Sequence record: PZ527900.1
Source of the DNA: a phage
DNA: 44,330 nt
Strand: one strand, 5' to 3'
How positions within the stretch are numbered: the first letter of the stretch is position 1; every line of letters begins with the position of its first letter. The translations under genes and the position numbers were made by a program. A model generated the notes under the pieces. That model ran no database searches. It was not told the DNA's origin and worked only from the letters and a program-made list of their open reading frames with translations. Shown one piece after another: positions 1-44,330 of this stretch.

Positions 1-403
1 TATCTAACCTAGGTCGAGTGCGTAGTGCTAAGGGCGTGCTCAAGGAGTTCATTCAAGATAACGGATACGTTGCCGTGATGTTAGGTGCTGGTGTGCGTAA
101 ACTGGTACACCGCTTAGTGGCTGTAGCATTTGTAGCTAATCCAGAAGGGAACCAGAGGTTAATCATAAAGACCATGTGCGCCATCACAATATGGCAGTTA
201 ACCTTGAATGGGTTACACGACAAGAGAATATCGATCACTCAAACAACATTACTACCTTCCGTTTAAGAAACGAAATAACAGGTGAAGTTGTAGAAGGGCG
301 TAATTTGGCAGCCTTCGCTAAAGAGCGAGGTTTAATTTATCCCAATCTCAATAAAGTAAATACAGGTGTGCGTCGTTCGCATAAAGGATGGGTAAAAGCA
401 TGA
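1..403 (+). CDS. HNH homing endonuclease, continuation of the ORF that starts at 44233; reading frame broken by a 1-nt indel near 148-152 (ORF pieces 18-266 and 176-403)
   Basis: Frame 0 gives VSNLGRVRS...GYVAVML...VHRLVAVAFVANPEG; the +2 frame continues EVNHKDHVRHHNMAVNLEWVTRQENIDHS, a His-Asn-His motif. Neither frame alone gives a full-length protein. Confidence 0.6.
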
Positions 404-3792: not shown

Positions 3793-3857
3793 TCGATAAG
3801 TCAAGGGTTGTCCAACGTGTTGGACAGCCTCTTTATCATATTGATCGGAGGTATTAA

Positions 3858-4215: not shown

Positions 4216-6748
4216 TTGGAAGAAGGAAGCAGAAGGCCGTATCCTTGTAATGGATGCGGAAGCTAAAGGTCTGCTTGACGCTATCCGCTATGGTCATCGT
4301 GAAGATGTACACATCATTTGCTGCATGGATTTGCTTACTACCGAGGAATTCTTATTCTTCGACCCTTATGAGATGCGTGACCCTGAAGCAAGGGAACGCC
4401 TGAAGGAGTGGGAAGGCCATCAAGATGGTGACTTAGTTGATGGTGTTAACTTCCTGAAGCACTGTGAAGCTATCGTGTCGCAAAACTTCCTAGGGTATGA
4501 CGGTCTTCTCTTTGAGAAAGCATTCCCTACTATCTGGAAGGGCTTTAACTATACCGAGAGGCGAGGCAAGGGCAGACTCCGCGCTGACCTGTGTCCTGTG
4601 CGAGTCATGGACACGCTGGTCATGAGCCGCCTGTTAAACCCAGACAGACGCCTTCCTCCTCAAGCATACGCCAAAGGTATGGGTAACGTCGCCCCTCACT
4701 CAATTGAAGCGCACGGCATCCGTATAGGCCGTTATAAGCCGGAGAATGAGGATTGGTCTAAGCTAACCGACCACATGGTTCACCGTGTACGTGAAGACGT
4801 GGCGATTGGTCGTGACCTTTTTCTCTGGCTATTTAACGGAGAATGGACGGAGCACAAACGCCGTGGCGTGAACAAACGTACTGGCCTAGGCATTGAGACT
4901 GCCTTCCACATGGAGTCCATTGTAGCGCTGGAGATGAGCCGTCAGGCCGAGCGCGGATTCCGTCTGGACATCGACAAAGCGTTAGCGCGATGCGAAGAAC
5001 TGGACGCTAAGATTGATGAGACAGTCGCAGCGTTCCGCCCACACATGCCTATGCGTATCAAGTCTAAACCTTTTAAACCGGAAGAAAAGAATGAAGTATG
5101 CCAACGCGCAAATGAGTATGGAGCTAGCAACAATATACCTACTGTCCTTGACCCCTCTCACTTTCTCCACGCAGAGAGACGAGGAGATCGCAAGACAGTA
5201 TGGAGTGTCACTACTAAGTCTGGTGATTGGTCGGCTAGTGTCAAGAAAGACTTTCCTCACCTTAGAGGAAACCGTAATGACACGCCAAGTATCAAGTGGG
5301 TCGGCGCTTACTCTCCCGTCACGTTTGAAGAGATTCCCTTGGGAAACCGTGACACCGTTAAGCAAGTGCTCTATGACTATGGCTGGAAAGGTGTGGAGTT
5401 CAACGATACAGAGCAAGCCTATCTTGATGAAAATGGTGTCCTACCTAAGCCTTGGAGTGGTAAGATAAATGAAAAGTCCCTTACTCTATGGCAAGAAAGA
5501 GCCGCACGTGAAGGTAAAACAGTCCCTGATTGGTGCTTGGGTATCGCTGCATGGTACATACTCGTATCCCGTCGTGGTCAGATACTCAACCGTGGTGACG
5601 TTGAAGCCTTCAACGAGAAAGGAACGTGGCCCTCTCAGGCTGGTGTACGAAAGTGTCGCGGCCTTGTACCTGTAGCATTTAACAAGGAGTTAGGAATCAA
5701 TGCGCAGCAATACTACGAGAGGTATGGGTGTTGGCCTACGTCTGACAAGGATGACGGAGAGTGGCGTGTGCCAGCTATTGCTATTAGCATTGGCACTTCT
5801 ACGTTCCGTATGCGTCATCGTAACGTGGTTAATATTCCTGCCCGTGGCTTGTATCCTTTACGTGATTTATTCATAGCAGGGAAAGGAAAGTTAATCCTTG
5901 GTTGTGATGGTGCAGGTCTTGAACTGCGTGTACTGTCTCACTTCATGAATGACCCTGAGTACCAAGATATTGTACTGCATGGTGATATCCATACTCATAA
6001 CCAGATGAAGGCCGGTCTTCCTAAGCGTGACATGGCGAAGACATTTATATATGCATTCCTCTATGGTTCTGGTATAGCTAACCTTGCAGCAGTATGTGGT
6101 GTTACTGAGGAAGAAATGAAGGAGGTTGTGGCAAGATTTGAGATTGAACTACCATCTCTTGCACGTCTTCGTGAAAATGTTATTGCACAAGGTAACAAGT
6201 TTGGCTACCTGCAAGCACCTGATGGACATTGGGGTCGCATCCGCATGTCTGGTGGTGAACTTAAAGAGCACACTATGCTTAACGTATTGCTACAGATGAC
6301 GGGTTCTTTGTGTATGAAATATGCATTGGTCAAGGCGTTTGCAGTGATGCGCAAGGAAGGTGTGGCTCTAGATAGCATGGGGAACCCTTGTGGTGTAGCT
6401 AACGTGCACGATGAGATTCAGATGGAAGTACCCGAAGATGAAGTCTTGTATCTTAACTACGACCTACCTTTCACCTTAGAGGGTTTTGAAACAGAGAAGG
6501 CTGCTGTGAAAGCAGTGTTCGATGCAGAGGAGAAACGCGTGCATGTGGACTCTGAGGGGCGCATGTGGTCTGCTGCTAACTTGGTTGAAGTGGATGCTGA
6601 TGCTGGTGTACTCCATTGCCAGCGTCGTTATCACCGTGCAGGGCATATCATTGCAGACGCCATGACTTGGGCTGGTCAGTATCTTAAGATGCGTTGCCCG
6701 ATGGCAGGCGAGTACAAGATTGGTGCAAGTTGGAAGGAGACACACTGA
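4202..6748 (+). CDS. DNA polymerase, family A (T7 gp5-like)
   Basis: Exo motif VMDAEAKGL; Pol I motif A LILGCDGAGLELRVLSHF; motif B RDMAKTFIYAFLYGSG; motif C VHDEIQMEV. Start set at the first in-frame ATG (MKSIDW...); the ORF-track start at 4169 is TTG. Confidence 0.9.
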   Translation: MKSIDWKKEAEGRILVMDAEAKGLLDAIRYGHREDVHIICCMDLLTTEEFLFFDPYEMRDPEARERLKEWEGHQDGDLVDGVNFLKHCEAIVSQNFLGYDGLLFEKAFPTIWKGFNYTERRGKGRLRADLCPVRVMDTLVMSRLLNPDRRLPPQAYAKGMGNVAPHSIEAHGIRIGRYKPENEDWSKLTDHMVHRVREDVAIGRDLFLWLFNGEWTEHKRRGVNKRTGLGIETAFHMESIVALEMSRQAERGFRLDIDKALARCEELDAKIDETVAAFRPHMPMRIKSKPFKPEEKNEVCQRANEYGASNNIPTVLDPSHFLHAERRGDRKTVWSVTTKSGDWSASVKKDFPHLRGNRNDTPSIKWVGAYSPVTFEEIPLGNRDTVKQVLYDYGWKGVEFNDTEQAYLDENGVLPKPWSGKINEKSLTLWQERAAREGKTVPDWCLGIAAWYILVSRRGQILNRGDVEAFNEKGTWPSQAGVRKCRGLVPVAFNKELGINAQQYYERYGCWPTSDKDDGEWRVPAIAISIGTSTFRMRHRNVVNIPARGLYPLRDLFIAGKGKLILGCDGAGLELRVLSHFMNDPEYQDIVLHGDIHTHNQMKAGLPKRDMAKTFIYAFLYGSGIANLAAVCGVTEEEMKEVVARFEIELPSLARLRENVIAQGNKFGYLQAPDGHWGRIRMSGGELKEHTMLNVLLQMTGSLCMKYALVKAFAVMRKEGVALDSMGNPCGVANVHDEIQMEVPEDEVLYLNYDLPFTLEGFETEKAAVKAVFDAEEKRVHVDSEGRMWSAANLVEVDADAGVLHCQRRYHRAGHIIADAMTWAGQYLKMRCPMAGEYKIGASWKETH

Positions 6749-6759
6749 GTTATACTCAA

Positions 6760-6780
6760 GGTCACTTAAGAGTGGCCTTT
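6760..6780 (+). terminator. weak hairpin plus T-tract after the DNA polymerase gene
   Basis: GGTCACTTAAGAGTGGCC (7-bp stem, 4-nt loop) followed by TTTAT; shares GAGTGGCCTTT with the post-RNAP terminator at 43781. Confidence 0.3.
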
Positions 6781-6814
6781 ATGAATAACTTATTCCTACT
6801 TATTTTGTCTAACA

Positions 6815-6840
6815 TGATTTACTGGACACTATAGAAGGAA
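6815..6840 (+). promoter_or_regulatory. phage RNAP promoter P1
   Basis: ATTTACTGGACACTATAGAAGG; one substituted block (ACTGG for AGGTG) relative to the SP6 promoter ATTTAGGTGACACTATAGAAG. Confidence 0.8.
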
Positions 6841-6903
6841 AGCCTAGGTAATCTAGGTTTATAAGGTAGTATAGGTAATTAAGTAAATATAGGAGATATA
6901 AAT

Positions 6904-7281
6904 ATGTCTATGGTAACTACTCTGGTTTTCGTAGCTCAATACTTTCGTGGTCTGGCTAATAAATTCAAGGCCAAGGCTATCAAAGCTATTGAGTCCCGCA
7001 TCGAGGCAGTACAGGAGGAGCAGGTTGAAGTTGAGGAACATCGCAGCTCTCAAATGATTGACTGCCACAATCGCTACTATGCCTCTCGTGATGACCTCAA
7101 TGCACGTCAAGTCAAAGAGGTTGAAGAGATGTTAGCACGTCACCAGCAAGAGCGTGACAACCTGAAAGCGGATTTCGAAGAGAACAAGGCATCCATTGCG
7201 CTTGTACATCAAGCTGCATCTGACAGCCTGAAGAAAGAGATTGTTATGCTGGAAATGGAGTTAGACAATCTGACCAAGTAA
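6904..7281 (+). CDS. hypothetical coiled-coil protein (125 aa)
   Basis: AGGAG 8 nt upstream; Glu/Lys/Gln-rich heptad-like sequence; lies between P1 and P2. Confidence 0.6.
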   Translation: MSMVTTLVFVAQYFRGLANKFKAKAIKAIESRIEAVQEEQVEVEEHRSSQMIDCHNRYYASRDDLNARQVKEVEEMLARHQQERDNLKADFEENKASIALVHQAASDSLKKEIVMLEMELDNLTK

Positions 7282-7302
7282 TTACTGGACACTATAGAAC
7301 AA
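7278..7302 (+). promoter_or_regulatory. phage RNAP promoter P2
   Basis: TAATTACTGGACACTATAGAAC; overlaps the stop of the preceding gene. Confidence 0.7.
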
Positions 7303-7488
7303 TAGGGCGTGGGTTTGTCAGAGACAGTAAATCCAAGGTGCTCAGTGAGCGTAAAGCCTAAGCACGTCCTATGATTGTAAAGTGTTGAACCCTATTGTGC
7401 ATCTTGCACAACCCGACTCCATCGGGCTTTCTAGTGAGTACATGCTTGTGCTCAGTACAAAGCTAACTGACAATAGGAGACTAAATAA

Positions 7489-8298
7489 ATGGCACGTGGT
7501 GATTTTGATTTTGGTGCTCAGGTTACTAAAGCTGAAGGTAAAGTATTTAAGAACCCTGAAGTTGGTGATCATGAAGCAGTAATCTCTGGTATCATTCATG
7601 TTGGTTCCTTCCAAGATATTTTTAAGAAAGGTAATACCACTGAAGTTAAGAAGCCAGCAAACTTTGTTCTTGTTAAGATTGTCTTGATGGGCGATGATGA
7701 CAAGAATGAAGATGATTCTCGCATGGAACAATGGATGCCTGTACCGCTGAAGTCTGGTGACAAGGCAACACTGACTAAGTTCCTGAATGCAGTTGACCCT
7801 AAAGAATTGCTGGGTGGCTTCGATGACTTCATTGGCGAATGTCTGACTGCAACTATGGTTGGCTCTGGAGACAAGAATGACGATGGCTCATTCAAGTATG
7901 TTAACTGGAAAGGTTTTGGTGGTATGCCAGACAAGCTGAAGAAACTTGTTATTGCTCAGGTAGAAGAAGAAGGTTTGGCTATGACAGGTCACATTACCTT
8001 CGACAAGCTGACCAAAGAAATCATTGATGACATTCCTGCTAATCTGGTACGTCAATACCTCTTGAATGAGACACCTCGTGGTAAGAACCTGTCTGTTGCT
8101 GGCTCTCACGTAGAAGCAATCATTAAAGCTGCTCGTGAAGAAGACCCAGAATGGAAGAAGGCTAAGAAGAAAGACGAAGAAGAAGATGCTACTCCGGCTA
8201 ATCGTAAATCTCTGGACACTGGTGAGTCTGTTCCACAGGAAGTACCAGAAGCGGACAATGCGCCTGCACCGGAAATGGATGAGGACGCGGAATATTAA
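7489..8298 (+). CDS. hypothetical protein with acidic C-terminal tail (269 aa); possible ssDNA-binding-type replication protein
   Basis: AGGAGA 8 nt upstream; Lys/Asp-rich; ends PEMDEDAEY (acidic tail with terminal aromatic). Function is a guess from the tail and genomic position. Confidence 0.6.
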   Translation: MARGDFDFGAQVTKAEGKVFKNPEVGDHEAVISGIIHVGSFQDIFKKGNTTEVKKPANFVLVKIVLMGDDDKNEDDSRMEQWMPVPLKSGDKATLTKFLNAVDPKELLGGFDDFIGECLTATMVGSGDKNDDGSFKYVNWKGFGGMPDKLKKLVIAQVEEEGLAMTGHITFDKLTKEIIDDIPANLVRQYLLNETPRGKNLSVAGSHVEAIIKAAREEDPEWKKAKKKDEEEDATPANRKSLDTGESVPQEVPEADNAPAPEMDEDAEY

Positions 8299-8307
8299 GG
8301 AGGACGG

Positions 8308-8526
8308 ATGAAAGTACAAATCGTAACCCTGCACTGCAAGCGTGGCATTACTACCCTCGGCGGCACAACTTTTCACTCCTTCTCTGAAGGGGAGACATAC
8401 GCCGACCTGCACTACATCTGGCGCGATGGACAGCACGTGGTGAACTACAGCGACCCAGCTACTGGGAAACGCCACGGCGTGTCGCTTCCGGCGCATGACA
8501 TTGCGCAGGTGAACACAGTTTTATAA
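8308..8526 (+). CDS. hypothetical protein (72 aa)
   Basis: Strong RBS TAAGGAGGA; followed immediately by a palindrome and promoter P3. Confidence 0.55.
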   Translation: MKVQIVTLHCKRGITTLGGTTFHSFSEGETYADLHYIWRDGQHVVNYSDPATGKRHGVSLPAHDIAQVNTVL

Positions 8527-8527
8527 A

Positions 8528-8543
8528 GTCTCACGTGTGAGAC
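8528..8543. repeat. 16-bp palindrome GTCTCACGTGTGAGAC (copy 2 of 6)
   Basis: Perfect inverted repeat starting 2 nt after the stop at 8526 and 15 nt upstream of P3. Confidence 0.8.
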
Positions 8544-8556
8544 AAATCGGTGTCCG

Positions 8557-8582
8557 GTATTTACTGGACACTATAGAAGAGA
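8557..8582 (+). promoter_or_regulatory. phage RNAP promoter P3
   Basis: TATTTACTGGACACTATAGAAGAG. Confidence 0.8.
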
Positions 8583-8630
8583 AGAATTTTAATCGGCGAT
8601 AATGCCATAACCAACAAAAGGAGAATTAAT

Positions 8631-8999
8631 ATGTTCGCTATTGAAACTATCGTAAACCGTGTTGTTAAAGGTGCTGCTCTGGTATCCGTTGAGTCTTTCA
8701 TTATCGTCGATGAAGCTGGCTCTCTGGTCGCTGGCACTAAAGCCTATGACACCCGTGAAGAAGCTCAGGCTAAGATTGACAGCATGGGTAACTTCGCTGC
8801 TGGTCTGGAGTTCGCTCGTGCTTGCTTCCCTGAGCAGGCTGACAAAGCTCAAATTGGTAAGGCTAACATCGTAGCTGAATATCTGGACTGGATTGCTGCT
8901 GGTAAACCAGTGAAAGAAGTTAAAGCTGCTGAAGAAGCTGAAGTAGTAGAAGACGTAGCTGCACCGGAAGTACCGGTAAGCGAAGAGGAGGAGTTTTGA
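8631..8999 (+). CDS. hypothetical protein (122 aa), probably highly expressed; acidic C-terminus ending EEEEF
   Basis: AAAGGAG RBS; own promoter (P3) and hairpin terminator (9058); codon choice dominated by GCT, CTG, GAA, GTT, GGT. Confidence 0.65.
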   Translation: MFAIETIVNRVVKGAALVSVESFIIVDEAGSLVAGTKAYDTREEAQAKIDSMGNFAAGLEFARACFPEQADKAQIGKANIVAEYLDWIAAGKPVKEVKAAEEAEVVEDVAAPEVPVSEEEEF

Positions 9000-9057
9000 T
9001 AATAGTAGGTGTTGCCTCTGTTAGTCCTAGTTGACTATCACGCTCACCCATCTAATG

Positions 9058-9090
9058 CCCTGTCTGCCTTAGTGTAGGCAGGGTCTTTTG
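9058..9090 (+). terminator. hairpin plus U-tract terminator
   Basis: CCCTGTCT...AGGCAGGG 8-bp stem followed by TCTTTTG; near-identical in design to the terminator after the capsid gene. Confidence 0.55.
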
Positions 9091-9115
9091 CGTAATAGTT
9101 ATTGGAGAATGAATT

Positions 9116-9388
9116 ATGCCGACTATTGAATCTCGAATTACAATGGACATTAGCTACAATGCAATCACCAGACAATACATTGGAGTGGCCTATGATTACA
9201 AAACTGGTGAGAAGCTAGTGGAGGTGAGACAATGGGATGACTATTGGTTAAGACAGAATCTCCACGATGCGGTGTCCTCCTTCTTGAAGGAGTGGCCTAC
9301 ATGCGACCAAACTTCAACTTCGGAGCTACAGTATCGGAAGACAATAATCTCATCCTGTGGCCAACTGAAGGTAATCGAATCGCTTTAA
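9116..9388 (+). CDS. hypothetical protein (90 aa)
   Basis: GGAG 8 nt upstream; overlaps the start of the exonuclease gene. Confidence 0.4.
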   Translation: MPTIESRITMDISYNAITRQYIGVAYDYKTGEKLVEVRQWDDYWLRQNLHDAVSSFLKEWPTCDQTSTSELQYRKTIISSCGQLKVIESL

Positions 9389-10329
9389 TAGACGCTGATA
9401 TGCTACCCTACATCGTAGGTTATACTATCAGTGACATGACTTATGTACGAGCTACCACTCGTGTTAAGTCAGGACAAGTCCCATCAATCAAAGATACACC
9501 TGAGTGTAAGCAAGCGTGTGACCGTGTGAACTCCTTGCTTAATTCTTGGGTGTATGCAGCAGAGTGTGATGCAGCCAAGTTATTCATGACGAAATCAGAA
9601 GCTAACTTCCGTGTCCGCCTAGCATTCACCAAGCCTTACAAGGGTCAGCGTAAGACCGAGAAGCCTCCATTTTTCTATGAATTGCGAGAGCATCTCTTAG
9701 CGGTTCATGGTGCAATCTTGGCAGATGGTGAAGAAGCAGATGACCTCATGAGCATTGCACAATGGGATAGCCACCGCCGCTTCCAGCAAGATACAGGTAA
9801 CGAGTTTCCTATCGGTAGTCCAGAGCATAAAGCATTCTCTGATACTTGCATCGTTTCCTTAGATAAGGACTTGATGATTGTTCCCGGTTGGCATCTTCAG
9901 CCGGGTCAAGAGAAGAAATGGGTAGAGCCTATGGGTTGGCTTGAGTTACGCCGCAAGGCTAATGGTCAAGTCAAAGACCTAAAAGGTGCAGGCATCATGT
10001 TTCATTACGCACAGATGGTGATTGGTGATGACATTGATAATTATGCTGGCATACCCAGTCGTGGTGCTAAATATGCCTATGACCTTCTCAAAGATTGTAA
10101 GACAGAGAAAGAGTTGTACATGGCAGTGCTTGGTGCTTACAAGGCTAAGTTCGGACATGGACAAGTTAAGATTAAGAATTACCGAGGTGGTTATCGTATC
10201 GGCAAAGCATTTGACCTGATGCTTGAATGTGGTCGCTTGGCTCACATGGCTAGGTTCAAAGGGGATATATGGCGAGCCGATAAGAACCCAATCTTGTGGG
10301 GAGATGATGCGAAATGGTTAGCAAATTAA
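9301..10329 (+). CDS. 5'-3' exonuclease, FEN-like (T7 gp6-like)
   Basis: AAGGAG 8 nt upstream of ATG 9301; N-terminal IALIDADMLPYIVGY resembles the T7 gp6 N-terminus; acidic cluster GEEADDLMSIA; sits upstream of endonuclease VII. Confidence 0.8.
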   Translation: MRPNFNFGATVSEDNNLILWPTEGNRIALIDADMLPYIVGYTISDMTYVRATTRVKSGQVPSIKDTPECKQACDRVNSLLNSWVYAAECDAAKLFMTKSEANFRVRLAFTKPYKGQRKTEKPPFFYELREHLLAVHGAILADGEEADDLMSIAQWDSHRRFQQDTGNEFPIGSPEHKAFSDTCIVSLDKDLMIVPGWHLQPGQEKKWVEPMGWLELRRKANGQVKDLKGAGIMFHYAQMVIGDDIDNYAGIPSRGAKYAYDLLKDCKTEKELYMAVLGAYKAKFGHGQVKIKNYRGGYRIGKAFDLMLECGRLAHMARFKGDIWRADKNPILWGDDAKWLAN

Positions 10330-10724
10330 AAGCATCGGAGGTGGCAGCTTATAAGAAGGAATTACTAGACAAGCAAGGGTGGAGGTGTCCACTATGCGGT
10401 GGTAGTCTCAAGGCTGTTACTCCTGTAAACCGTGTACTTGACCATGACCATGAGACAGGCTTCTGTCGTGCTGTTGTATGCCGAGGGTGCAACGGTGCAG
10501 AGGGAAAGATTAAGGGTGTTATCTCTGGTTATGGTAAGGCGGGCAATAATCGTTACTTCCAGCTTCAATGGTTAGAGCGACTGTATGAATACTGGAAGTT
10601 ACATAGTACGCCTCAGACAGATAAGTTATATCACAAACATCAAACGGAGGCAGAGAAGCGCGAGGCTAAGAACCGTAAGGCACGCCTTGCTTATGCAAGA
10701 AAGAAGGAGGTTAAAGTTGGGTAA
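10314..10724 (+). CDS. endonuclease VII-type Holliday-junction resolvase
   Basis: CPLCGG...DHDHETGFCRAVVCRGCNGAEG matches the zinc-binding H-N-H signature of the T4 endonuclease VII family. Confidence 0.8.
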   Translation: MVSKLKASEVAAYKKELLDKQGWRCPLCGGSLKAVTPVNRVLDHDHETGFCRAVVCRGCNGAEGKIKGVISGYGKAGNNRYFQLQWLERLYEYWKLHSTPQTDKLYHKHQTEAEKREAKNRKARLAYARKKEVKVG

Positions 10725-11724
10725 GCTTCGCAGCTTGTACAAAGACTCCGAGGTACTTGATGCAATCGAGCAAGCTACCGACGAGAAAGGTAATGTTAAC
10801 TACAATGAGATGGCACGTATATTATCGTGTCACCCTGTGGGTAAGAAGATTACCCGCCAATTGGCTCGATACTGGCATGGTCAATTCAAGAAGACCAAGA
10901 AGAATGGTGATTATTACCAGACTCTTCTGCAAGAAGATAAGCGTATCAAAGAAGAGCGTAAGCTCAGGACTCCTGACCGCTACGAGGATTTGGCTATTGT
11001 ACCATTGCCTGACTCGCCTCATCGAAGTGTACTGGTAATACCTGATACTCATGCACCTTATGAGCACCCAGATGCTTTAGAATTCCTTGCAGCAGTTGCA
11101 GCACGTTATCGTCCAGACACTGTGGTTCATTTGGGGGATGAGGCGGATAAACATGCCTTGTCATTCCACGATTCGGACCCAAATCTAGATAGTGCTGGCA
11201 TGGAGTTAGAAAAGGCTCGTGTCTTCATGCACAAGTTGCACAAGATGTTCCCTGTGATGCGCCTGTGTCATTCTAATCACGGCTCTATGCACTTCCGTAA
11301 GGCGAGCGCCAAAGGTATCCCTGTGCAATATCTGCGTACCTACCGTGAAGTCTTCTTCCCAAATGGAGGTGGCGACCAGTGGGATTGGCAGCACACTCAT
11401 GTACTTGAATTGCCGAACGGTGAACAGGTAGCGTTCAAGCATCAACCTGCTGGCTCTGTCCTAGCAGATGCAGCACATGAGCGTATGAATCTAGTGTGTG
11501 GACATTTGCACGGTAAGATGTCTGTGGAGTATGCACGTAATACTCATGAGCAATACTGGGCGGTGCAGGGTGGCTGTCTGATTGATGAGTCGTCTCGTGC
11601 ATTCGCCTATGGTCGTGAGTCTAAGTACAAGCCAGCATTAGGTTGTGTGGTTATTCTGGATGGTGTGCCGCACATTGTCCCGATGCAAACCAATAGTGAC
11701 AATCGCTGGATTGGCAAGATTTAG
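10693..11724 (+). CDS. calcineurin-like metallophosphatase
   Basis: Motifs VIPDTHAPYEH (DxH), HLGDEADKH (GDxxD) and HSNHG (GNH-like). Start uncertain: ATG 10693 has a weak RBS, whereas in-frame TTG 10717 has AAGGAGG 6 nt upstream. Confidence 0.7.
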   Translation: MQERRRLKLGKLRSLYKDSEVLDAIEQATDEKGNVNYNEMARILSCHPVGKKITRQLARYWHGQFKKTKKNGDYYQTLLQEDKRIKEERKLRTPDRYEDLAIVPLPDSPHRSVLVIPDTHAPYEHPDALEFLAAVAARYRPDTVVHLGDEADKHALSFHDSDPNLDSAGMELEKARVFMHKLHKMFPVMRLCHSNHGSMHFRKASAKGIPVQYLRTYREVFFPNGGGDQWDWQHTHVLELPNGEQVAFKHQPAGSVLADAAHERMNLVCGHLHGKMSVEYARNTHEQYWAVQGGCLIDESSRAFAYGRESKYKPALGCVVILDGVPHIVPMQTNSDNRWIGKI

Positions 11725-11741
11725 GTGACACTATAGAACAA
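11719..11741 (+). promoter_or_regulatory. phage RNAP promoter P4 (identical to the SP6 promoter core)
   Basis: ATTTAGGTGACACTATAGAACA; followed by hairpin GGGCAGGTAGTGGCTTGCCC at the transcript 5' end. Confidence 0.8.
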
Positions 11742-11791
11742 AGGGCAGGTAGTGGCTTGCCCTTGATTGTATAGTGAGTGGAGGAGTTAAT

Positions 11792-12131: not shown

Positions 12132-13079
12132 ATGAATATCTTTGAGTTCCTAGGGCTTCCAGAAGACCACCGCAGCCACCCATTCATGTTGGTGAAACAT
12201 CGTGGTGAAGTTCCTGAGAAGAAATTAAACTTTCCATGTTATGCACAGGTGAAACGAGATGGGATATTTAGTGCTGTTGTGGTCCGTAATGATGGTGCTG
12301 TTGCCATCTTTGGTCGTACTGGTAAAAAGCTCGCAAATGTTGAAGACTTGGAAAAGCTATTTAGTATATTTCCTGTCGGGTTGTATCTTGGTGAGTTGCA
12401 ATCTATGGCTGTTGGTGTATATCTTGAAGCTCTATCGGGAGTAGTAAACCCTAATCGTACAGAGCCACTTGATTTCATAGGGCAGCAGATTAAAGACAAC
12501 CTGTATATCGACTTCTTCGATATGTTAACCATTAAGGCATTCCATGATGGATTCACTGATGTTTCTTATCTCAAACGTTACGATGCTTTACATCGTCGCA
12601 TCGGCGCTCATCTTAGCGGGAACAACGCTATCCTTCCTATCACCCCTTGCCATAATGAGCGAGATGTTGAAGCGTTTGCGCAAGAGCAAATAGATGCAGG
12701 CCGAGAGGGTGCTGTATTTAAACTTGATGTGGAGTATGAAAGTGGGCACAAGGGCTATCGTCAAACGAAGATCGTGCGTATGGTATCTTACGACCTCACC
12801 TGCATTGGGTGGGAGGAGGGAAAAGGTAAGTATAAAGGTAAGGTAGCTAACCTCATTTTCAAATGGAAAGGAGGCAAGACAATCAAAGCTATGTTAGGTA
12901 AAGGGTGGACTCATGCAGATGCAGAACAGATGTTCCACGATATTAAACATGGCGGACGATTGAATGTCATTGGTAAAATCTTTGAAGTAAAAGGTCTTCA
13001 GGATTCAAGCAAGGGCAACATTCGTCTGCCCAAAGCGGGAGAATTAAGACATGACAAAGATGAACCAGATTTCTTTTGA
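12132..13079 (+). CDS. ATP-dependent DNA ligase
   Basis: Motif I VKRDG (adenylation Lys), motif IV REGAVFK; size and position as for T7-like ligases. Confidence 0.8.
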   Translation: MNIFEFLGLPEDHRSHPFMLVKHRGEVPEKKLNFPCYAQVKRDGIFSAVVVRNDGAVAIFGRTGKKLANVEDLEKLFSIFPVGLYLGELQSMAVGVYLEALSGVVNPNRTEPLDFIGQQIKDNLYIDFFDMLTIKAFHDGFTDVSYLKRYDALHRRIGAHLSGNNAILPITPCHNERDVEAFAQEQIDAGREGAVFKLDVEYESGHKGYRQTKIVRMVSYDLTCIGWEEGKGKYKGKVANLIFKWKGGKTIKAMLGKGWTHADAEQMFHDIKHGGRLNVIGKIFEVKGLQDSSKGNIRLPKAGELRHDKDEPDFF

Positions 13080-24700: not shown

Positions 24701-24717
24701 TACCTAACTCAAGGCTT

Positions 24718-24733
24718 GTCTCACATGTGAGAC
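24718..24733. repeat. 16-bp palindrome GTCTCACATGTGAGAC (copy 3 of 6)
   Basis: Perfect palindrome; extended stem GGCTTGTCTCACATGTGAGACAGGTC followed by TTTAT. Confidence 0.8.
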
Positions 24734-24764
24734 AGGTCTTTATGATAGGCACTATGGAGGAACT

Positions 24765-29401: not shown

Positions 29402-31299
29402 TGGCTAAGGCAAGAGAATCACAAGCGGAGGCTCTTGCCAGATGGGAGATGCTACAGGAATTACAGCAGACCTTTCCTTATACAGCGGAAGGTTTGCTCC
29501 TCTTTGCAGACACAGTTATTCATAACTTGATTGCAGGCAACCCTCATCTGATTCGTATGCAGGCTGATATATTGAAGTTCCTATTCTATGGACACAAGTA
29601 TCGCCTCATCGAAGCGCCCCGTGGTATCGCTAAAACTACATTATCAGCAATCTATACAGTCTTCCGTATCATCCATGAACCACATAAGCGTATCATGGTT
29701 GTATCTCAAAACGCCAAGCGAGCAGAGGAAATCGCTGGCTGGGTGGTGAAAATCTTCCGTGGCCTAGACTTCCTTGAGTTTATGCTACCGGATATCTACG
29801 CAGGGGACCGTGCCTCTGTTAAGGCATTTGAGATTCATTACACCCTACGTGGCAGTGACAAGTCGCCTTCTGTATCTTGTTACTCGATCGAAGCAGGTAT
29901 GCAGGGTGCTCGTGCTGATATTATCTTAGCGGACGATGTTGAGTCGATGCAGAATGCTCGTACCGCCGCAGGCCGTGCATTGCTTGAGGAGTTGACCAAG
30001 GAGTTTGAATCTATCAACCAGTTTGGTGATATTATCTACCTTGGTACCCCTCAGAACGTAAACTCTATCTACAACAACCTGCCTGCTCGTGGCTACTCGG
30101 TTCGCATCTGGACTGCACGTTACCCTTCAGTGGAGCAGGAGCAATGTTATGGTGACTTCCTTGCACCTATGATTGTGCAAGATATGAAGGACAACCCAGC
30201 ACTTCGCTCAGGTTATGGTTTGGACGGTAACAGCGGAGCACCTTGTGCCCCTGAAATGTATGATGATGACGTCCTTATTGAGAAGGAAATCTCGCAGGGT
30301 GCTGCTAAGTTCCAGCTCCAATTCATGCTTAACACTCGCATGATGGATGCTGACCGCTACCCTCTACGGCTGAATAACCTTATCTTTACCTCATTCGGTA
30401 CGGAGGAAGTCCCTGTGATGCCTACATGGAGCAATGACTCTATTAACATCATTGGCGATGCACCTAAGTATGGCAACAAGCCTACAGACTTCATGTATAG
30501 ACCTGTGGCCCGTCCCTATGAATGGGGTGCTGTTACTCGCAAGATCATGTATATTGACCCAGCGGGTGGCGGTAAGAACGGAGATGAAACGGGTGTAGCG
30601 ATTGTCTTCCTGCACGGAACATTCATTTATGTGTATCAGTGCTTCGGTGTACCGGGCGGATACCGAGAATCGTCCCTGAATCGCATTGTGCAGGCCGCAA
30701 AGCAGGCAGGGGTTAAAGAGGTATTCATTGAGAAGAACTTTGGTCATGGCGCGTTTGAGGCCGTAATTAAGCCGTACTTTGAACGGGAGTGGCCTGTCAC
30801 TCTGGAGGAGGATTACGCCACAGGACAGAAGGAATTGCGTATCATTGAGACGCTGGAGCCACTCATGGCGGCGCACAGGCTCATCTTTAATGCCGAGATG
30901 GTCAAGTCTGACCTTGAGTCAGTACAGCACTATCCACTTGAACTACGCATGTCCTACAGCCTTTTCAATCAAATGTCGAACATCACGATTGAGAAGAACA
31001 GCCTCCGGCATGATGACCGCTTAGACGCGCTGTATGGCGCTATACGGCAATTAACTTCTCAGATAGACTATGACGAGGTTACACGGATTAATCGCCTCAG
31101 AGCGCAGGAGATGCGCGATTACATCCAAGCCATGAACACACCTCACCTACGCAGGGCAATGCTCTATGGGGATTATGGAACTGAGCGAAGAGTGACCAAC
31201 ACCTCTGTAGCGATGCAGCAGCGGGTTTACGGTCGGAACTACCGGAATAAGTCCTCCAATAGAAATACAATTTCTGCAAGGATTTCAAGGACTTATTAA
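29401..31299 (+). CDS. terminase large subunit (T7 gp19-like)
   Basis: 632 aa; ATPase P-loop-like PRGIAKTT and Walker B ADIILADDVES; C-terminal nuclease region. Confidence 0.9.
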   Translation: MAKARESQAEALARWEMLQELQQTFPYTAEGLLLFADTVIHNLIAGNPHLIRMQADILKFLFYGHKYRLIEAPRGIAKTTLSAIYTVFRIIHEPHKRIMVVSQNAKRAEEIAGWVVKIFRGLDFLEFMLPDIYAGDRASVKAFEIHYTLRGSDKSPSVSCYSIEAGMQGARADIILADDVESMQNARTAAGRALLEELTKEFESINQFGDIIYLGTPQNVNSIYNNLPARGYSVRIWTARYPSVEQEQCYGDFLAPMIVQDMKDNPALRSGYGLDGNSGAPCAPEMYDDDVLIEKEISQGAAKFQLQFMLNTRMMDADRYPLRLNNLIFTSFGTEEVPVMPTWSNDSINIIGDAPKYGNKPTDFMYRPVARPYEWGAVTRKIMYIDPAGGGKNGDETGVAIVFLHGTFIYVYQCFGVPGGYRESSLNRIVQAAKQAGVKEVFIEKNFGHGAFEAVIKPYFEREWPVTLEEDYATGQKELRIIETLEPLMAAHRLIFNAEMVKSDLESVQHYPLELRMSYSLFNQMSNITIEKNSLRHDDRLDALYGAIRQLTSQIDYDEVTRINRLRAQEMRDYIQAMNTPHLRRAMLYGDYGTERRVTNTSVAMQQRVYGRNYRNKSSNRNTISARISRTY

Positions 31300-31320
31300 T
31301 TACTGGACACTATAGAAGGA
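31296..31320 (+). promoter_or_regulatory. phage RNAP promoter P7
   Basis: TAATTACTGGACACTATAGAAGGA overlapping the terminase stop codon. Confidence 0.75.
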
Positions 31321-31455
31321 AGGCCAAGAGAATAAGAGAATAATAAGGATAATATAGGTTAACCTAGGTTATATAGGTATGCCTTAGTATGGGTGTACTC
31401 CTGTACACCCTATTCCTTACTTCCTTACTATAGTTAACTATGAATAGGAGATATG

Positions 31456-37496: not shown

Positions 37497-37872
37497 ATGG
37501 AAACGTGGGTAACTATTCCTGGCTACCCACGGTATCAAGTGCCTACTCATGGACGTGTCAAATCGCTCATTGGTAATCACAAGATACTGAAGCCGGGCAA
37601 GTCAAAGAGTGGGTATTTAAATGTAGTTCTTAGTAACGAGGGAGGCAAGAGGACATTCCGTGTGCATCGCTTGGTTGCACTATGTCACTTGCCTAACCCT
37701 CATAACCTTCCCCTTAGTGAACCACAAGGATGAAGACAAGGCACATAATCATGTAGACAACTTAGAGTGGTGTACTGAAGAGTACAATCTAAAGTATTCA
37801 CGTGACTATGACAGGTCTTCTCTTAGTGTAACCCAAGGGAAGAAGAAGGTATGGCTTCCAGTTGACCTGTAA
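37497..37872 (+). CDS. second HNH homing endonuclease; frame broken by +1 C in a C4 run near 37710 (ORF pieces 37497-37733 and 37660-37872)
   Basis: AAGGAG RBS; N-part WVTIPGYPRYQV...HRLVALCHLPNP, C-part VNHKDEDKAHNHVDNLEWCTEEYN in the +1 frame. Confidence 0.6.
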
Positions 37873-38524: not shown

Positions 38525-38540
38525 GTCTAACATGTGAGAC
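38525..38540. repeat. 16-bp palindrome variant GTCTAACATGTGAGAC (copy 4 of 6, one mismatch)
   Basis: Lies about 35 nt upstream of the candidate host promoter. Confidence 0.5.
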
Positions 38541-38573
38541 AACCTAGATTTGTCTTAGTGAGGTAACTTAGTG

Positions 38574-39849: not shown

Positions 39850-40734
39850 ATGACTACTGAAAACACCCTCGTTTCTGTTCGTGAAGCTGCAACCGCTGAA
39901 ATCAAGCAACACTTAGACAATATCGGCACTTCTTACATCAAAGTTGGCGCTTGTCTGAATGAATTACGTGGTGACTTCGAAGGTCAAAAAGACTTTTTAG
40001 CTTATGTAGAATCAGAGTTCGGCATTAAGAAAGCACAATGTTACAAGCTGATGAGCGTAGCGCGTGTCTTTGAAGGTGACGAACGCTTCAAAGGTGTGGC
40101 TATGCGTGTAATGCTGGTGCTTGTTCCTTTCGCTGATGAAAGTATCATTATGGAGAAGGCCGCAGAACTTGCCGCAGATGGCAAGCTGGACACTGCCGCC
40201 GTAAACGCCTTGATTGAGCCTAAGAAAGAGCCAAAGACTGAGACGATACAATCTAAGCCTGAGCCAGTAAAACCGCAGGAGAACGCGACTGAGGACGCAG
40301 AATCACAGGAAACGCAAGCGCCGCAGGCAGTTCCGCCAGCTATCGAGTCAGATGCCGATGAAGCCTCACCATGGGAAGAGGAAAGCAAGACGGAAGCACC
40401 GAAGGCCGCGCCACGGGATAACACGGCTAACACTGAAAACGCCGCTATCGCGGGATTATTGGCACAAATTAAAGCACTGACGGAGCAGTTGCAGGCAGCT
40501 AATGACCGCATCGCCTCTTTAAGTAGCGCACGCGAAAGCAAGAAGGCAGCAGCGCCTATGCTTCCACAATTCAAATCATCTTGCTTCTACGCTCGCTTGG
40601 GTTTGAGTGCTGAGGAAGCAACGAAGAAGACCGCAGTAAACAAGGCACGCCGTGAACTGGTCAAGCTGGGATACGGTGAAGGCCATGAGGCATGGGCCTT
40701 AATCTCTGAGGCAGTAGAAGAATTGACTAAGTAA
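39850..40734 (+). CDS. early protein of unknown function (294 aa): folded N-domain, acidic/Pro-rich disordered linker, helical C-domain
   Basis: Linker EPKKEPKTETIQSKPEPVKPQENATEDAESQETQAPQAVPPAIESDADE; C-terminal FYARLGLSAEEATKKTAVNKARRELVKLGY resembles the start of a J-domain but lacks HPD. No kinase motifs. Confidence 0.65.
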   Translation: MTTENTLVSVREAATAEIKQHLDNIGTSYIKVGACLNELRGDFEGQKDFLAYVESEFGIKKAQCYKLMSVARVFEGDERFKGVAMRVMLVLVPFADESIIMEKAAELAADGKLDTAAVNALIEPKKEPKTETIQSKPEPVKPQENATEDAESQETQAPQAVPPAIESDADEASPWEEESKTEAPKAAPRDNTANTENAAIAGLLAQIKALTEQLQAANDRIASLSSARESKKAAAPMLPQFKSSCFYARLGLSAEEATKKTAVNKARRELVKLGYGEGHEAWALISEAVEELTK

Positions 40735-40797: not shown

Positions 40798-41139
40798 ATG
40801 TGTGGCAAACGCGGCAGACCTGTTAATCAGGAGAATGAAAAGCTAAGACAAGCCGCCAAAGAGCGAGGTGATAAGGTATATGACTCTATACAACCATGTA
40901 AACACGGGCATATAGCCCGCTTGGTATCAGACAATAGGTGCCACGCCTGTAAACTTCAAAAGGCTAAAAGGTACAGAGATGCTATGAATCTGGAGCAGAA
41001 AGAAAAGCAAATGGCACACGTCAGGGCTTACATGAAGAAGCGGTATGATAGTGATCCTGCTTTTCGTAAGTATCAAATTGTAAACAGCGAAATCAACCGC
41101 CACCTACGCGCACTGAATAAACTACTAGATATGGAGTAA
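40798..41139 (+). CDS. early hypothetical basic protein with Cys/His cluster (113 aa)
   Basis: GGAG RBS; [18 protein letters not shown] may bind zinc; directly upstream of RNAP. Confidence 0.55.
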
Positions 41140-41144
41140 ACAAG

Positions 41145-43772
41145 ATGCAAGATTTACATGCTATCCAGCTTCAATTAGAGGAAGAGATGTTTAACGGCGG
41201 TATTCGTCGCTTTGAAGCAGACCAACAGCGACAAATTGCATCAGGTAATGAGTCTGATACGGCTTGGAATCGCCGCCTATTGTCTGAATTAATCGCGCCG
41301 ATGGCTGAAGGTATTCAGGCATACAAGGAAGAGTATGAAGGTAAAAGAGGTCGTGCACCGCGTGCCCTTGCTTTCATTAACTGCGTAGAAAACGAAGTGG
41401 CAGCATATATCACGATGAAAATCGTAATGGATATGCTTAACACTGATGTTACCTTGCAGGCCATTGCCATGAATGTAGCGGACCGCATCGAAGACCAAGT
41501 GCGCTTCAGTAAGCTAGAAGGTCACGCCGCAAAATACTTTGAGAAAGTGAAGAAGTCGCTTAAGGCAAGTAAGACTAAGGCATATCGCCATGCGCACAAT
41601 GTAGCAGTAGTGGCTGAAAAGTCTGTAGCTGACCGTGACGCGGATTTCTCCCGCTGGGAGGCATGGCCCAAAGACACCTTGTTGCAAATAGGTACTACCT
41701 TGCTGGAAATCTTGGAGAATAGCGTATTCTTCAACGGGCAGCCTGTTTTCCTTCGTACCTTGCGCACTAACGGCGGCAAACATGGTATTTATTACTTACA
41801 AACTAGCGAACACGTAGGTGAATGGATAACGGCCTTCAAAGAGCACGTAGCGCAACTGAGTCCTGCCTATGCACCTTGCGTTATCCCTCCGCGTCCTTGG
41901 GTGTCTCCTTTTAATGGCGGTTTTCACACCGAGAAGGTAGCAAGCCGTATCCGTCTAGTTAAAGGCAACCGTGAGCACGTCCGTAAGCTGACCAAAAAGC
42001 AAATGCCAGCGGTATACAAGGCTGTTAACGCCTTACAGGCCACTAAATGGCAAGTCAATAAGGAAGTATTGCAGGTTGTTGAAGATGTTATTCGTCTCGA
42101 CCTTGGTTATGGTGTGCCTTCATTTAAGCCACTCATCGACCGCGAGAACAAGCCAGCTAATCCCGTGCCGTTAGAGTTCCAGCATCTAAGAGGCCGTGAA
42201 CTTAAAGAGATGCTAACGCCGGAACAATGGCAAGCCTTCATTAACTGGAAAGGCGAGTGCACCAAGCTGTATACCGCTGAGACTAAGCGCGGCAGCAAAT
42301 CGGCGGCAACCGTCCGCATGGTCGGGCAGGCCCGTAAATACAGCCAGTTTGACGCTATATACTTCGTGTATGCACTGGACAGCCGCAGCCGCGTCTACGC
42401 GCAATCTAGCACGCTCTCCCCGCAATCAAACGATTTAGGCAAGGCATTGCTCCGCTTTACCGAAGGGCAACCGCTAGATAGCGCTGAGGCGCTTAAATGG
42501 TTTTTGGTGAACGGGGCTAATAGCTGGGGTTGGGATAAGAAAACTTTTGACGTGCGCACCGCTAACGTGCTGGAGGGTGAGTTCCAAGATATGTGCCGCG
42601 ACATTGCAGCCGACCCGCTGACCTTCACTCAATGGGTGAATGCCGATTCGCCTTATGGCTTCCTTGCATGGTGCTTTGAATATGCGCGTTATCTGGATGC
42701 ACTGGATGAAGGTAAGCAAGACCAATTCATGACACACCTACCCGTCCATCAAGATGGTAGTTGCTCTGGTATCCAGCACTATAGCGCGATGTTACGCGAT
42801 GAAGTAGGTGCGAAAGCGGTAAACCTTAAGCCGTCCGACGAGCCGCAAGACATTTACGGTGCGGTTGCGCAGGTTGTTATACAGAAGAATTACGCCTACA
42901 TGAATGCAGACGATGCAGTAACTTTCACATCTGGCAGCGTCACCCTTACAGGTGCGGAATTGCGTAGCATGGCTAGCGCATGGGATATGATTGGAATCAC
43001 TCGCGGCTTAACCAAAAAGCCGGTTATGACCTTGCCATATGGTTCCACCCGCTTAACCTGCCGTGAGTCGGTTATTGATTACATCGTTGATTTGGAAGAA
43101 AAAGAGGCACAAAGGGCTATTGCAGAAGGGCGGACGGCGAATCCGGTGCACCCTTTTGATAATGACCGTAAAGACTATCTGACACCGGGCGCAGCTTATA
43201 ACTATATGACAGCCTTAATTTGGCCTTCAATCTCTGAAGTTGTTAAAGCCCCTATAGTGGCGATGAAAATGATTCGCCAGCTTGCACGATTTGCAGCTAA
43301 AAGAAATGAAGGGTTAGAATACCCCTTACCTACTGGTTTCATCTTGCAACAAAAGATCATGGCAACTGATATGCTACGCGTTTCTACTTGCTTGATGGGT
43401 GAAATCAAGATGAGTCTACAGATTGAAACGGATGTAGTGGATGAAACGGCAATGATGGGCGCTGCGGCCCCTAACTTTGTTCACGGGCATGATGCTAGTC
43501 ACCTTATCCTGACTGTATGTGACCTCGTGGATAAAGGTATTACATCCATTGCAGTTATTCATGACTCTTTTGGCACTCATGCAGGCCGCACCGCAGACCT
43601 GCGGGATAGCTTAAGGGCAGAAATGGTAAAAATGTATCAAGGTCGTAATGCCCTGCAAAGCCTGCTAGATGTACATGAAGAGCGTTGGCTAGTAGATACC
43701 GGCATCCAAGTGCCGGAGCAAGGGGAGTTTAACCTTGAAGAGATCTTAGTTTCTGACTATTGCTTCGCATAA
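41145..43772 (+). CDS. single-subunit DNA-directed RNA polymerase (SP6/T7 family)
   Basis: 875 aa; [42 protein letters not shown] and C-terminal ...DYCFA; N-terminus [32 protein letters not shown] matches SP6 RNAP as recalled. Confidence 0.95.
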
Positions 43773-43780
43773 TATTGATA

Positions 43781-43810
43781 GGCCATTCCTTCGGGAGTGG
43801 CCTTTTCTTT
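43781..43810 (+). terminator. rho-independent-type terminator after the RNAP gene (candidate early terminator)
   Basis: GGCCATTCC-TTCG-GGAGTGGCC (9-bp stem, UUCG loop) followed by TTTTCTTT. Confidence 0.6.
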
Positions 43811-43844
43811 ACCTGCTACCTGTAACATTTCATTAACATAAAGT

Positions 43845-43860
43845 GTCTCACATGTGAGAC
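43845..43860. repeat. 16-bp palindrome GTCTCACATGTGAGAC (copy 5 of 6)
   Basis: Directly abuts promoter P10. Confidence 0.8.
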
Positions 43861-43862
43861 TT

Positions 43863-43887
43863 ATATTTACCGGACACTATAGGAGAG
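43863..43887 (+). promoter_or_regulatory. phage RNAP promoter P10
   Basis: ATTTACCGGACACTATAGGAGAG. Confidence 0.7.
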
Positions 43888-44021
43888 AACCGTCGGAGAC
43901 GGGAGAGAGAAGGGAAGGTAAAGGATATAAAGGAAGTAATAAGTATTAAAGGTTATATAGGTTTACCTAGGAATACCTATTACCTTCTTCCTTCCTCTTA
44001 TTACTACTTAGAGGAAGGGCA
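43888..44021. other. AT-rich, purine-then-pyrimidine skewed segment between tandem promoters; candidate primary replication origin
   Basis: GA-rich left half (GGGAGAGAGAAGGGAAGGTAAAGG...), CT-rich right half (ACCTTCTTCCTTCCTCTTATTAC); contains AGGTTATATAGGT. Confidence 0.35.
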
Positions 44022-44037
44022 GACCTAGGTTGTCTCA
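44022..44037. repeat. 16-bp palindrome GTCTCACATGTGAGAC (copy 6 of 6)
   Basis: Directly abuts promoter P11. Confidence 0.8.
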
Positions 44038-44050
44038 CATGTGAGACTTG

Positions 44051-44076
44051 GTATTTACCGGACAGTATAGATAAGA
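44051..44076 (+). promoter_or_regulatory. phage RNAP promoter P11 (variant CAGTATAG)
   Basis: TATTTACCGGACAGTATAGATAAG, with C to G at -5 relative to the consensus. Confidence 0.5.
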
Positions 44077-44100
44077 CTAACTTACTTTGGAGATTTAACC

Positions 44101-44229
44101 ATGCGTAACTTTGAGAAGATGACCCGTAAAGCTAAGCGTTTCGACATGGAAGAGGGGCAGACGAAAGGCAAGAAGCTGAATAAACCTGTCCGTGACCGTG
44201 CATCTAAACGCGCAGCGTGGGAGTTCTAA
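44101..44229 (+). CDS. T7 gene 1.1-like small basic protein (42 aa)
   Basis: GGAG 8 nt upstream; MRNFEKMTRKAKRF...KGKKLNKPVRDRASKRAAWEF matches the size, position after tandem promoters, and sequence pattern of T7 gp1.1 as recalled. Confidence 0.6.
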   Translation: MRNFEKMTRKAKRFDMEEGQTKGKKLNKPVRDRASKRAAWEF

Positions 44230-44232
44230 GTT

Positions 44233-44330
44233 ATGGAATTGTGGCGCAACATAGAAGGTCATGAAGGTTATGAGGTATCTAACCTAGGTCGAGTGCGTAG
44301 TGCTAAGGGCGTGCTCAAGGAGTTCATTCA
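44233..44330 (+). CDS. N-terminus of the HNH homing endonuclease that continues at window position 1
   Basis: ATG 3 nt after the previous stop; MELWRNIEGHEGYEVSNLGRVRS... is in frame with ORF 18-266 through the 55-nt overlap. Confidence 0.6.
   Translation, partial: MELWRNIEGHEGYEVSNLGRVRSAKGVLKEFI
44276..44330. other. 55-nt duplicate of window positions 1-55 (circular-assembly overlap)
   Basis: Exact identity of the last 55 nt with the first 55 nt, inside a coding sequence. Confidence 0.9.

Follow-up and report, generated by a model that had tools for sequence, protein, structure and literature searches.

What is the role of the non-coding DNA between the RNA polymerase gene and the gene 1.1 homologue of an SP6-like coliphage, and does it, like the region at the same place in T7, also serve as an origin of replication? 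We studied this locus in sequence record PZ527900.1, a circularly permuted Vectrevirus (K1E/K1-5-like) genome of the SP6-like coliphage group, whose 44,330 nt were analysed as a whole and are called the window here. Judged by its sequence elements, the locus corresponds in position and architecture to the primary-origin region of T7, and its arrangement of terminator, promoters, spacer and gene 1.1 is the one expected for the SP6-like group, that is, a known kind of locus. With a probability of roughly 0.5, we consider it to be the SP6-group equivalent of the T7 gene 1/gene 1.1 control region, with replication primed in the T7 manner; origin activity is proven in T7, and here the origin role would follow by analogy. 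The parts of this reading are not equally strong: a transcription-unit boundary with tandem promoters (the early-to-middle switch) is very probable, a usable origin in vivo has a chance slightly short of even, and a sole or primary origin at this place is doubtful. The elements on which the argument depends are the following, from left to right.

41145-43772, plus strand: single-subunit phage RNA polymerase gene, the T7 gene 1 homologue (Pfam RNA_pol, E 1.6e-87; RPOL_N, E 1.5e-31)
43780-43811, plus strand: predicted intrinsic terminator with a 10-bp stem, a UUCG loop and then a TTTTCTTT run (folding, covariation, annotation in MK373771)
43845-43860, no strand: copy 1 of the perfect 16-bp palindrome GTCTCACATGTGAGAC, which stops 4 bp upstream of P_A
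43865-43882, plus strand: phage promoter P_A, exact consensus ATTTACCGGACACTATAG, presumed start at G 43882
43890-43902, plus strand: stem-loop CCGUC GGA GACGG, close to the 5' end of P_A transcripts (RNAalifold, covariation)
43903-43971, plus strand: purine-rich, AT-rich block of WWAGGWA units spaced about 9-11 nt, ending in CCTAGG (43966-43971)
43972-44031, plus strand: half rich in pyrimidines, containing a local hairpin that is followed by GGGCAGA and another CCTAGG (44024-44029)
44032-44047, no strand: copy 2 of the perfect 16-bp palindrome GTCTCACATGTGAGAC, which stops 5 bp upstream of P_B
44053-44070, plus strand: phage promoter P_B, ATTTACCGGACAGTATAG, with C to G at -5, presumed start at G 44070
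44071-44100, plus strand: leader of 30 nt, 70% AT, with a Shine-Dalgarno GGAG at 44089-44092
44101-44229, plus strand: gene 1.1 homologue encoding a basic protein of 42 aa (PF08200, phrog_2490)

The boundary between two transcription units is carried by the terminator and the promoters. The terminator hairpin (43780-43803; -18.2 kcal/mol, z -5.5) begins eight bases past the stop codon of the RNA polymerase gene, and together with its U-run it makes a predicted intrinsic (rho-independent) terminator. In 11 lineages, 97.7% of the cells of the stem were paired and compensatory changes were found in 5 of 8 pairs, which none of 500 shuffles equalled; the same terminator is also annotated in MK373771. 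Since the stem covaries and a U-run follows it, we regard the terminator as genuine and conserved. An Rfam scan gave no family at its gathering threshold, and the best hit, suhB (21.7 bits vs a threshold of 41), fell on this hairpin.

Matches to the phage promoter numbered 11 in the window vs 0.03 expected, and P_A and P_B are the 10th and 11th of them (P10 and P11 of the first-pass annotation, which was made from the letters of the window alone), so by sequence match rightward phage RNA polymerase promoters are present at the locus. The relatives used for comparison were 25 IMG/VR loci from Vectrevirus, Zindervirus (SP6) and more distant lineages, together with several GenBank records. P_A is conserved in all of them, and P_B is off-consensus in every lineage, with C-5G in all Vectrevirus relatives and A-1T in Zindervirus. 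The two start sites are 188 bp apart, and that of P_B lies 30 nt before the gene 1.1 start codon. Tandem promoters precede gene 1.1 in nearly all of 34 T7-like and SP6-like loci retrieved with a gp1.1 profile, which means that the synteny is deep. As a separate observation, the promoter at 11719-11736 has the exact classical SP6 consensus ATTTAGGTGACACTATAG, and the other promoters of the window read ATTTAC(T/C)GGACACTATAG.

The genes on both sides are those of T7. The polymerase gene is annotated as such in the relatives R4596, LL11 and K1E. The 42-aa open reading frame belongs to PF08200 (Phage_1_1; E 1.1e-15, 58.2 bits over the full length, gathering cut-off 21), matches phrog_2490 (E 4.6e-17) and is 56% identical to T7 gp1.1. 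Each promoter has a 16-bp palindrome directly in front of it, and with at most two mismatches this palindrome occurred seven times in the window vs 0.21 times expected. These results bear out a good part of the first-pass annotation, which had described a strong hairpin terminator right after the polymerase gene, a palindrome before each of two tandem promoters, a basic 42-aa frame like T7 gp1.1, and the gene order of the T7 primary origin.

Between the P_A start site and palindrome 2 lies a non-coding spacer of 149 nt. Its AT content is 59% overall vs 54.5% for the genome, and the core at 43911-44010 reaches 69% (99.6th percentile); only one other 100-bp stretch of the window is less stable than this core. 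Thus, the AT-rich segment of 130 bp that had been proposed holds for the core, and the spacer as a whole is longer and less AT-rich. The left half (43882-43955) is 80% purine, and the 74-nt frame at 43879, with 81% purine, is the maximum of the whole window; the right half is mildly pyrimidine-rich (38-42% purine), so the claimed half-and-half skew stands fully on the left side and weakly on the right. The asymmetry is accounted for by the AGG-containing repeats and the local hairpin. In that hairpin, CCUUCCUCU at 43990-43998 pairs with AGAGGAAGG at 44010-44018 (-14.6 kcal/mol, z -4.0), and an equivalent was predicted in most lineages. The 5' stem-loop, at +9 to +21 of the P_A transcript (-6.5 kcal/mol), was the sole pairing that RNAalifold retained in 17 sequences, with compensatory changes in 3 of 5 pairs, where G-C is swapped to A-U, U-A or C-G across relatives. 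In the AGG block, a G-to-A change at 43942 (AAG) removes one AGG unit and weakens a stem that is present in close relatives. No small open reading frame was found in the spacer, where the only ATG is an ATG-TGA within the palindrome.

The spacer region matches about 100 phage records, and the complete layout is preserved in about 100 SP6-like phages. The orthologous region is 92-96% identical in Escherichia phages of Vectrevirus (K1E, K1-5-like, LL11, R4596) and about 69% identical in Salmonella phage SP6 and its relatives, with the elements in equal order in both. This order is common to the relatives even where the promoter sequence has changed: terminator, palindrome, promoter, the +9/+21 stem-loop, AGG units and CCTAGG are followed by the pyrimidine-rich hairpin stretch, CCTAGG(TT), palindrome, second promoter and gene 1.1.

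T7 offers the best model of how such a locus could work. T7 replication starts at phi1.1A/phi1.1B, with phiOR and phi6.5 as secondary origins that are used if those are deleted, and every T7 origin needs a T7 promoter (PMC8373140); for T7-origin plasmids, an R-loop made by T7 RNA polymerase was proposed (PMC8373140). A cluster rich in A/T inside the T7 origin is mentioned in PMC12839067, which cites Saito 1980 for it. On the T7 map, gene 1 ends at 5822, phi1.1A and phi1.1B stand at 5848 and 5923, and gene 1.1 runs from 6007. Thus, both phages have the RNA polymerase gene upstream, the gene for a 42-aa gp1.1 downstream, two phage promoters in the same direction, and an AT-rich, easily melted block. 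The relative position is also similar, phi1.1B at 5923 of 39937 bp being at 15%, and our locus about 6.1 kb (14%) from the natural left end, which we place near window position 37750 from the position of the RNA polymerase gene in R4596.

For transcription, the sequence and the comparisons point to the following course of events. Host-polymerase early transcription of the RNA polymerase gene would stop at the conserved intrinsic terminator, and P_A and P_B would open a DNA-metabolism operon that runs from gene 1.1 through the HNH endonuclease and the primase-helicase on towards the DNA polymerase. The P_A transcript would carry the conserved 5' stem-loop, a purine/AT-rich AGG leader of about 150 nt, the second hairpin and the palindromic hairpin before P_B. 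By analogy with T7, a phage-polymerase transcript from P_A (or P_B), made in easily melted DNA, could become the primer for rightward synthesis by the DNA polymerase, and leftward synthesis would begin after the primase-helicase has loaded on the displaced strand. In that case the locus would serve additionally as an origin driven by the phage RNA polymerase, probably as one of up to three promoter-plus-AT-rich modules in the genome.

The T7 region is not the same in every respect. In T7 the promoters are 75 bp apart and the 57 bp between them are 53% AT, whereas here the start sites are 188 bp apart; a terminator between genes 1 and 1.1 is also lacking in T7, where the early terminator TE is at 7588, after gene 1.3. 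Reading the T7 region by eye revealed neither the palindromes nor the spaced AGG repeats. The established position of the T7 RNase III site R1.1 (Dunn and Studier 1983) is between phi1.1A and phi1.1B. It stands just upstream of the second T7 promoter, as palindrome 2 stands before P_B. By-eye comparison showed that the R1.1 upper stem GGUCAUUC..GAGUGGCCUUU nearly equals the terminator stem of the window, GGCCAUUC..GAGUGGCCUUU; over T7 5866-5885, the R1.1 upper stem GGTCATTC..GAGTGGCCTTT resembles the stem GGCCATTC..GAGTGGCCTTT at 43780-43803. This shared stem sequence suggests that the element by which the 3' end of gene 1 mRNA is formed has a common ancestor in the two phages.

Several indicators were then compared between the window, SP6 and T7 to ask how far the origin part can be carried. 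The first was an AT rule, the AT content of 61-bp windows directly downstream of promoters, calibrated on T7, where the top windows lay exactly downstream of phiOL, phi1.1B, phi6.5 and phiOR, all of them established or proposed replication promoters. In our window, the promoter at 6817 came first, and P_A and the promoter at 31298 were within the top six. The 69% AT core is downstream of P_A but upstream of P_B, and the other two modules are equal or richer in AT. The T7 promoters phiOR, phi6.5 and phiOL, each preceding one of the most AT-rich stretches of its genome, resemble 6817, 31298 and P_A; unlike the T7 secondary origins and replication promoters, the three modules of the window carry spaced AGG repeats. 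The second indicator was the preference of the transcript for an RNA:DNA hybrid over duplex DNA, and the extreme of the window was at 43868-43876, about 4 standard deviations from the mean. The third was the detrended cumulative GC skew, whose minimum fell at 43881, the P_A start site, whichever left end was assumed, and at 6690 in SP6; the raw skew climbs genome-wide because all genes are on one strand. SP6 primase is said to recognise 5'-GCA-3', a triplet too frequent to inform here.

The following points weigh against an origin at this locus. The AT-rich block comes after both promoters in T7 (5924-6006, 72% AT) but stands between the two here, so that, with the additional terminator, the first-pass annotation went too far in stating that T7 has exactly such an arrangement. 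P_B, being off-consensus throughout, may be a weak promoter. SP6 showed no remarkable hybrid preference, and at the T7 origin the value was positive (unfavourable); for the P_A transcript the preference is therefore probably incidental, and R-loop propensity was rejected as a family-wide origin signature. The skew minima sit on plateaus of about 6 kb (window 43062 to 5685; SP6 5836-11769) that extend to the DNA polymerase gene, so GC skew was dropped as an origin locator that does not discriminate. AT-richness here is modest, and ordinary genes at 6817 and 31298 have similar AGG modules as their 5' leaders. Concerning the literature, Dobbins 2004 is cited, in a paper on UAB_Phi78, an SP6-like phage, for a bidirectional SP6 origin at the DNA polymerase gene. 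The searchable literature gave no replication data and no mapped origin for the SP6/K1E group, a negative that leaves aside the SP6/K1-5 genome papers, which may comment on the locus. Taken together, the AT, hybrid, skew and literature indicators fail to separate origin from non-origin. What stands of the proposed primary-origin architecture is its synteny; the purine/pyrimidine asymmetry is no known origin feature, and similar AT/AGG modules follow two other promoters.

The AGG arrays lead to the alternative that survives best. In SP6, the spacer has six AGG at a spacing of 9-10 nt, which was matched in 0 of 2000 shuffles, and Tandem Repeats Finder reported 4.8 copies of period 10 for SP6 and a period of 9 for R4596. 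The spacer of the window itself contained no tandem repeat with a score of at least 30, and the AGG spacing was significant only in the relatives. The promoters at 6817 and 31298 also precede AT-rich leaders with AGG 9-10 nt apart (6836-6895 and 31316-31380), and their SP6 orthologues are the promoters at 12542 and 37773 with arrays at 12560-12620 and 37790-37860. Runs of at least four spaced AGG were found in the window only in those promoter modules, and never on the minus strand. Because similar modules follow two other promoters, the origin-like features are not unique to the locus, and since the arrays at 6817 and 31298 lead directly into the ribosome-binding site of a gene, a site supplied by the last unit, the array may be a leader feature rather than an origin feature.

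It is therefore possible, although below even odds, that the locus is an expression element only, which sets the timing, level and stability of the middle mRNA through a 5' hairpin that protects it, AGG repeats resembling Shine-Dalgarno sequences, and hairpins marking 3' ends or processing sites, and that replication starts elsewhere, for example at the 6817 module, which adjoins the DNA polymerase gene, or at several sites. This would agree with the equal leaders directly upstream of ordinary genes, with the restriction of the arrays to the transcribed strand, with the covariation of the 5' hairpin and the terminator as RNA structures, and with the fact that the most AT-rich downstream region of the window belongs to promoter 6817; the Dobbins reference, as cited for UAB_Phi78, would also place the SP6 origin at the DNA polymerase gene. 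However, the P_A array is not followed by a start codon, which excludes a translation leader at that place, and the tandem promoters are kept at this position only. Moreover, the T7 region serves as both expression element and origin, which means that the two roles are not exclusive.

The same alternative draws on RNA processing sites elsewhere in the genome. A T7-type RNase III signature, defined as ACUCAAGG, hairpin and CCUUUAUGA, retrieves exactly R0.3, R0.5 and R1.1 in T7, and it matched at 6777 and 24738 in the window, at 12255 and 30588 in SP6, and at 5882 (R1.1) in T7. The sites, built as ACTCAAGG, hairpin and CCTTTATGA, span about 6753-6790 and 24705-24750 in the window and about 12230-12270 and 30560-30600 in SP6. 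The one at 6753-6790 is nearly identical to the T7 R1.1 core and folds as lower stem, internal loop and upper stem. The palindromes at 2567, 3810 and 24718 top longer hairpins, and the one at 24718 bears the full flanks ACUCAAGG...CUUUAUGA and itself forms the upper stem. The flank matches thus indicate that SP6-group phages carry T7-type RNase III sites and that the palindrome can be their upper stem, in favour of an expression role. Within 43773-44100 the T7 RNase III signature was not found, and the locus is not classed as such a site.

An R1.1-like long hairpin between the promoters was also considered and was rejected for the window copy, being weak in close relatives. Folding of 43882-44031 gave z -0.53; for a long hairpin joining the two halves of the spacer, the per-lineage z was -1.5 to -6 in relatives and -0.08 in the window, and RNAalifold found no long hairpin conserved in register across lineages (17 sequences). 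As RNA, the locus palindromes form a weak 6-bp hairpin (-6.9 kcal/mol, z about -1.5). By analogy with R1.1 before phi1.1B, they may be short 3'-end or processing hairpins that insulate the promoters from upstream transcription; alternatively, they may be protein-binding sites. Neither palindrome sequence was found in the open literature.

The palindromes are dispersed over the genome, at 999, 2567, 3810, 8528, 11878, 24718, 38525, 43845 and 44032, in SP6-orthologous positions. Seven of the copies have the Vectrevirus form GTCTCAC..GTGAGAC, and those at 3810 and 11878 keep the SP6 form GTCCAAC..GTTGGAC. The SP6 palindromes read GTC(C/T)AAC..GTTGGAC and stand, among other places, at the left end, at each of the two promoters that come after the polymerase gene, within the primase gene and behind it, ahead of a middle promoter, and between a pair of virion genes; the orthologue of our copy 1 is GTCCAACGTGTTGGAC at 6093. 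The copy at 999, inside the primase gene, is changed in one half through a nonsynonymous Asn-to-His codon, and by our own reading of the frame the matching change in the other half would give a TGA stop. A consensus sigma-70 promoter (TTGACA, 17 bp, TATAAT) comes after the copy at 38525, which precedes its -35 hexamer by about 30 bp. A TAGGTT unit at 44025 stands beside the palindrome, and an inverted copy of the unit stands beside the left-end palindrome near 38541. Copy 2 of the locus is kept in Vectrevirus and Zindervirus and is missing in four more distant lineages (L022, L023, L024, L028).

Such a distribution could mean that the palindromes are operators and the TAGGTA-like repeats, about 10 bp apart, iteron-like sites, by which a phage (or host) DNA-binding protein gates both promoters and/or marks origins. 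We consider this unlikely. The near-identical 16-mers at conserved positions, the form shared by seven sites where SP6 has another, the one-sided change in the primase gene, the TAGGTT units beside two palindromes and a repeat spacing near one helical turn all argue for it. Yet two SP6-type copies remain in the same genome, several copies clearly top longer RNA hairpins, palindrome 2 is missing in the four distant lineages, the window's own AGG array is degenerate, and the analysis yielded no candidate for the binding protein; the 294-aa early protein (39850-40734) had no sequence match in Pfam or PDB and matched only a PHROG family of unknown function. The more specific proposal, that the TAGGTA-like repeats at three promoters and the palindromes are binding arrays for a phage factor, forming iteron-like origin or regulatory modules, is decidedly improbable; if true, it would put iteron-like modules into a group thought to initiate by RNA polymerase alone.

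The weakest alternative, a small non-coding RNA of about 170 nt formed where some P_A transcripts end at palindrome 2 (hairpin then UUGGUAUUU), in which a 5' hairpin, a single-stranded AGG run and two 3' hairpins would make a sponge for an RNA-binding factor or ribosomes, is very unlikely: the lack of an open reading frame in the spacer, a predicted layout of hairpin, mostly unpaired repeats and then two hairpins, and a consensus scan that marks the palindrome as terminator-like are consistent with it, but the palindrome hairpin is weak and its U-run interrupted, no Rfam family reached threshold, palindrome 2 is absent from four lineages, and comparable arrays elsewhere run directly into genes.

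If the locus works as the T7 control region does, another branch of the T7 supergroup would gain a defined origin that can be tested, and the extent to which the layout may vary would become visible, since the AT-rich block here separates the promoters and does not follow them. The locus would also give a second origin-polymerase pair, which might work independently of the T7 pair and be used for replicons driven by the SP6/K1E polymerase. For the engineering of K1-capsule phages, the approximately 330 bp of non-coding DNA at this place should not be regarded as dispensable. Should the locus prove to be no origin, tandem promoters and AT-rich DNA after gene 1 would be a conserved expression feature and not diagnostic of an origin.

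The record and the neighbouring genes gave some further results. The first 55 nt of the window (1-55) are identical to its last 55 (44276-44330), which indicates that the window is a circularised contig with an assembly overlap, from a permuted genome of about 44.3 kb. An HNH homing-endonuclease gene separates gene 1.1 from the gene of the primase-helicase; it starts at 44233 and, because the genome is permuted, continues at window position 1 as far as about 400. It is present in the window and in LL11 and absent from R4596, K1E and SP6. In the leader of gene 1.1, a ribosome-binding site is annotated at the equivalent place in phage LL11. Upstream of the polymerase gene, a Cys/His-rich open reading frame of 113 aa (40798-41139) lies between it and the gene of the 294-aa early protein; it had only weak matches, to PHROG entries of unknown function, and SP6 has no annotated gene at that position. 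Near the presumed left end, the segment 38240-38390 contains dense CCTTAG / CTTAGT / CCTAGG repeats with irregular spacing, which recall the short repeat arrays adjoining the T7 terminal repeats.

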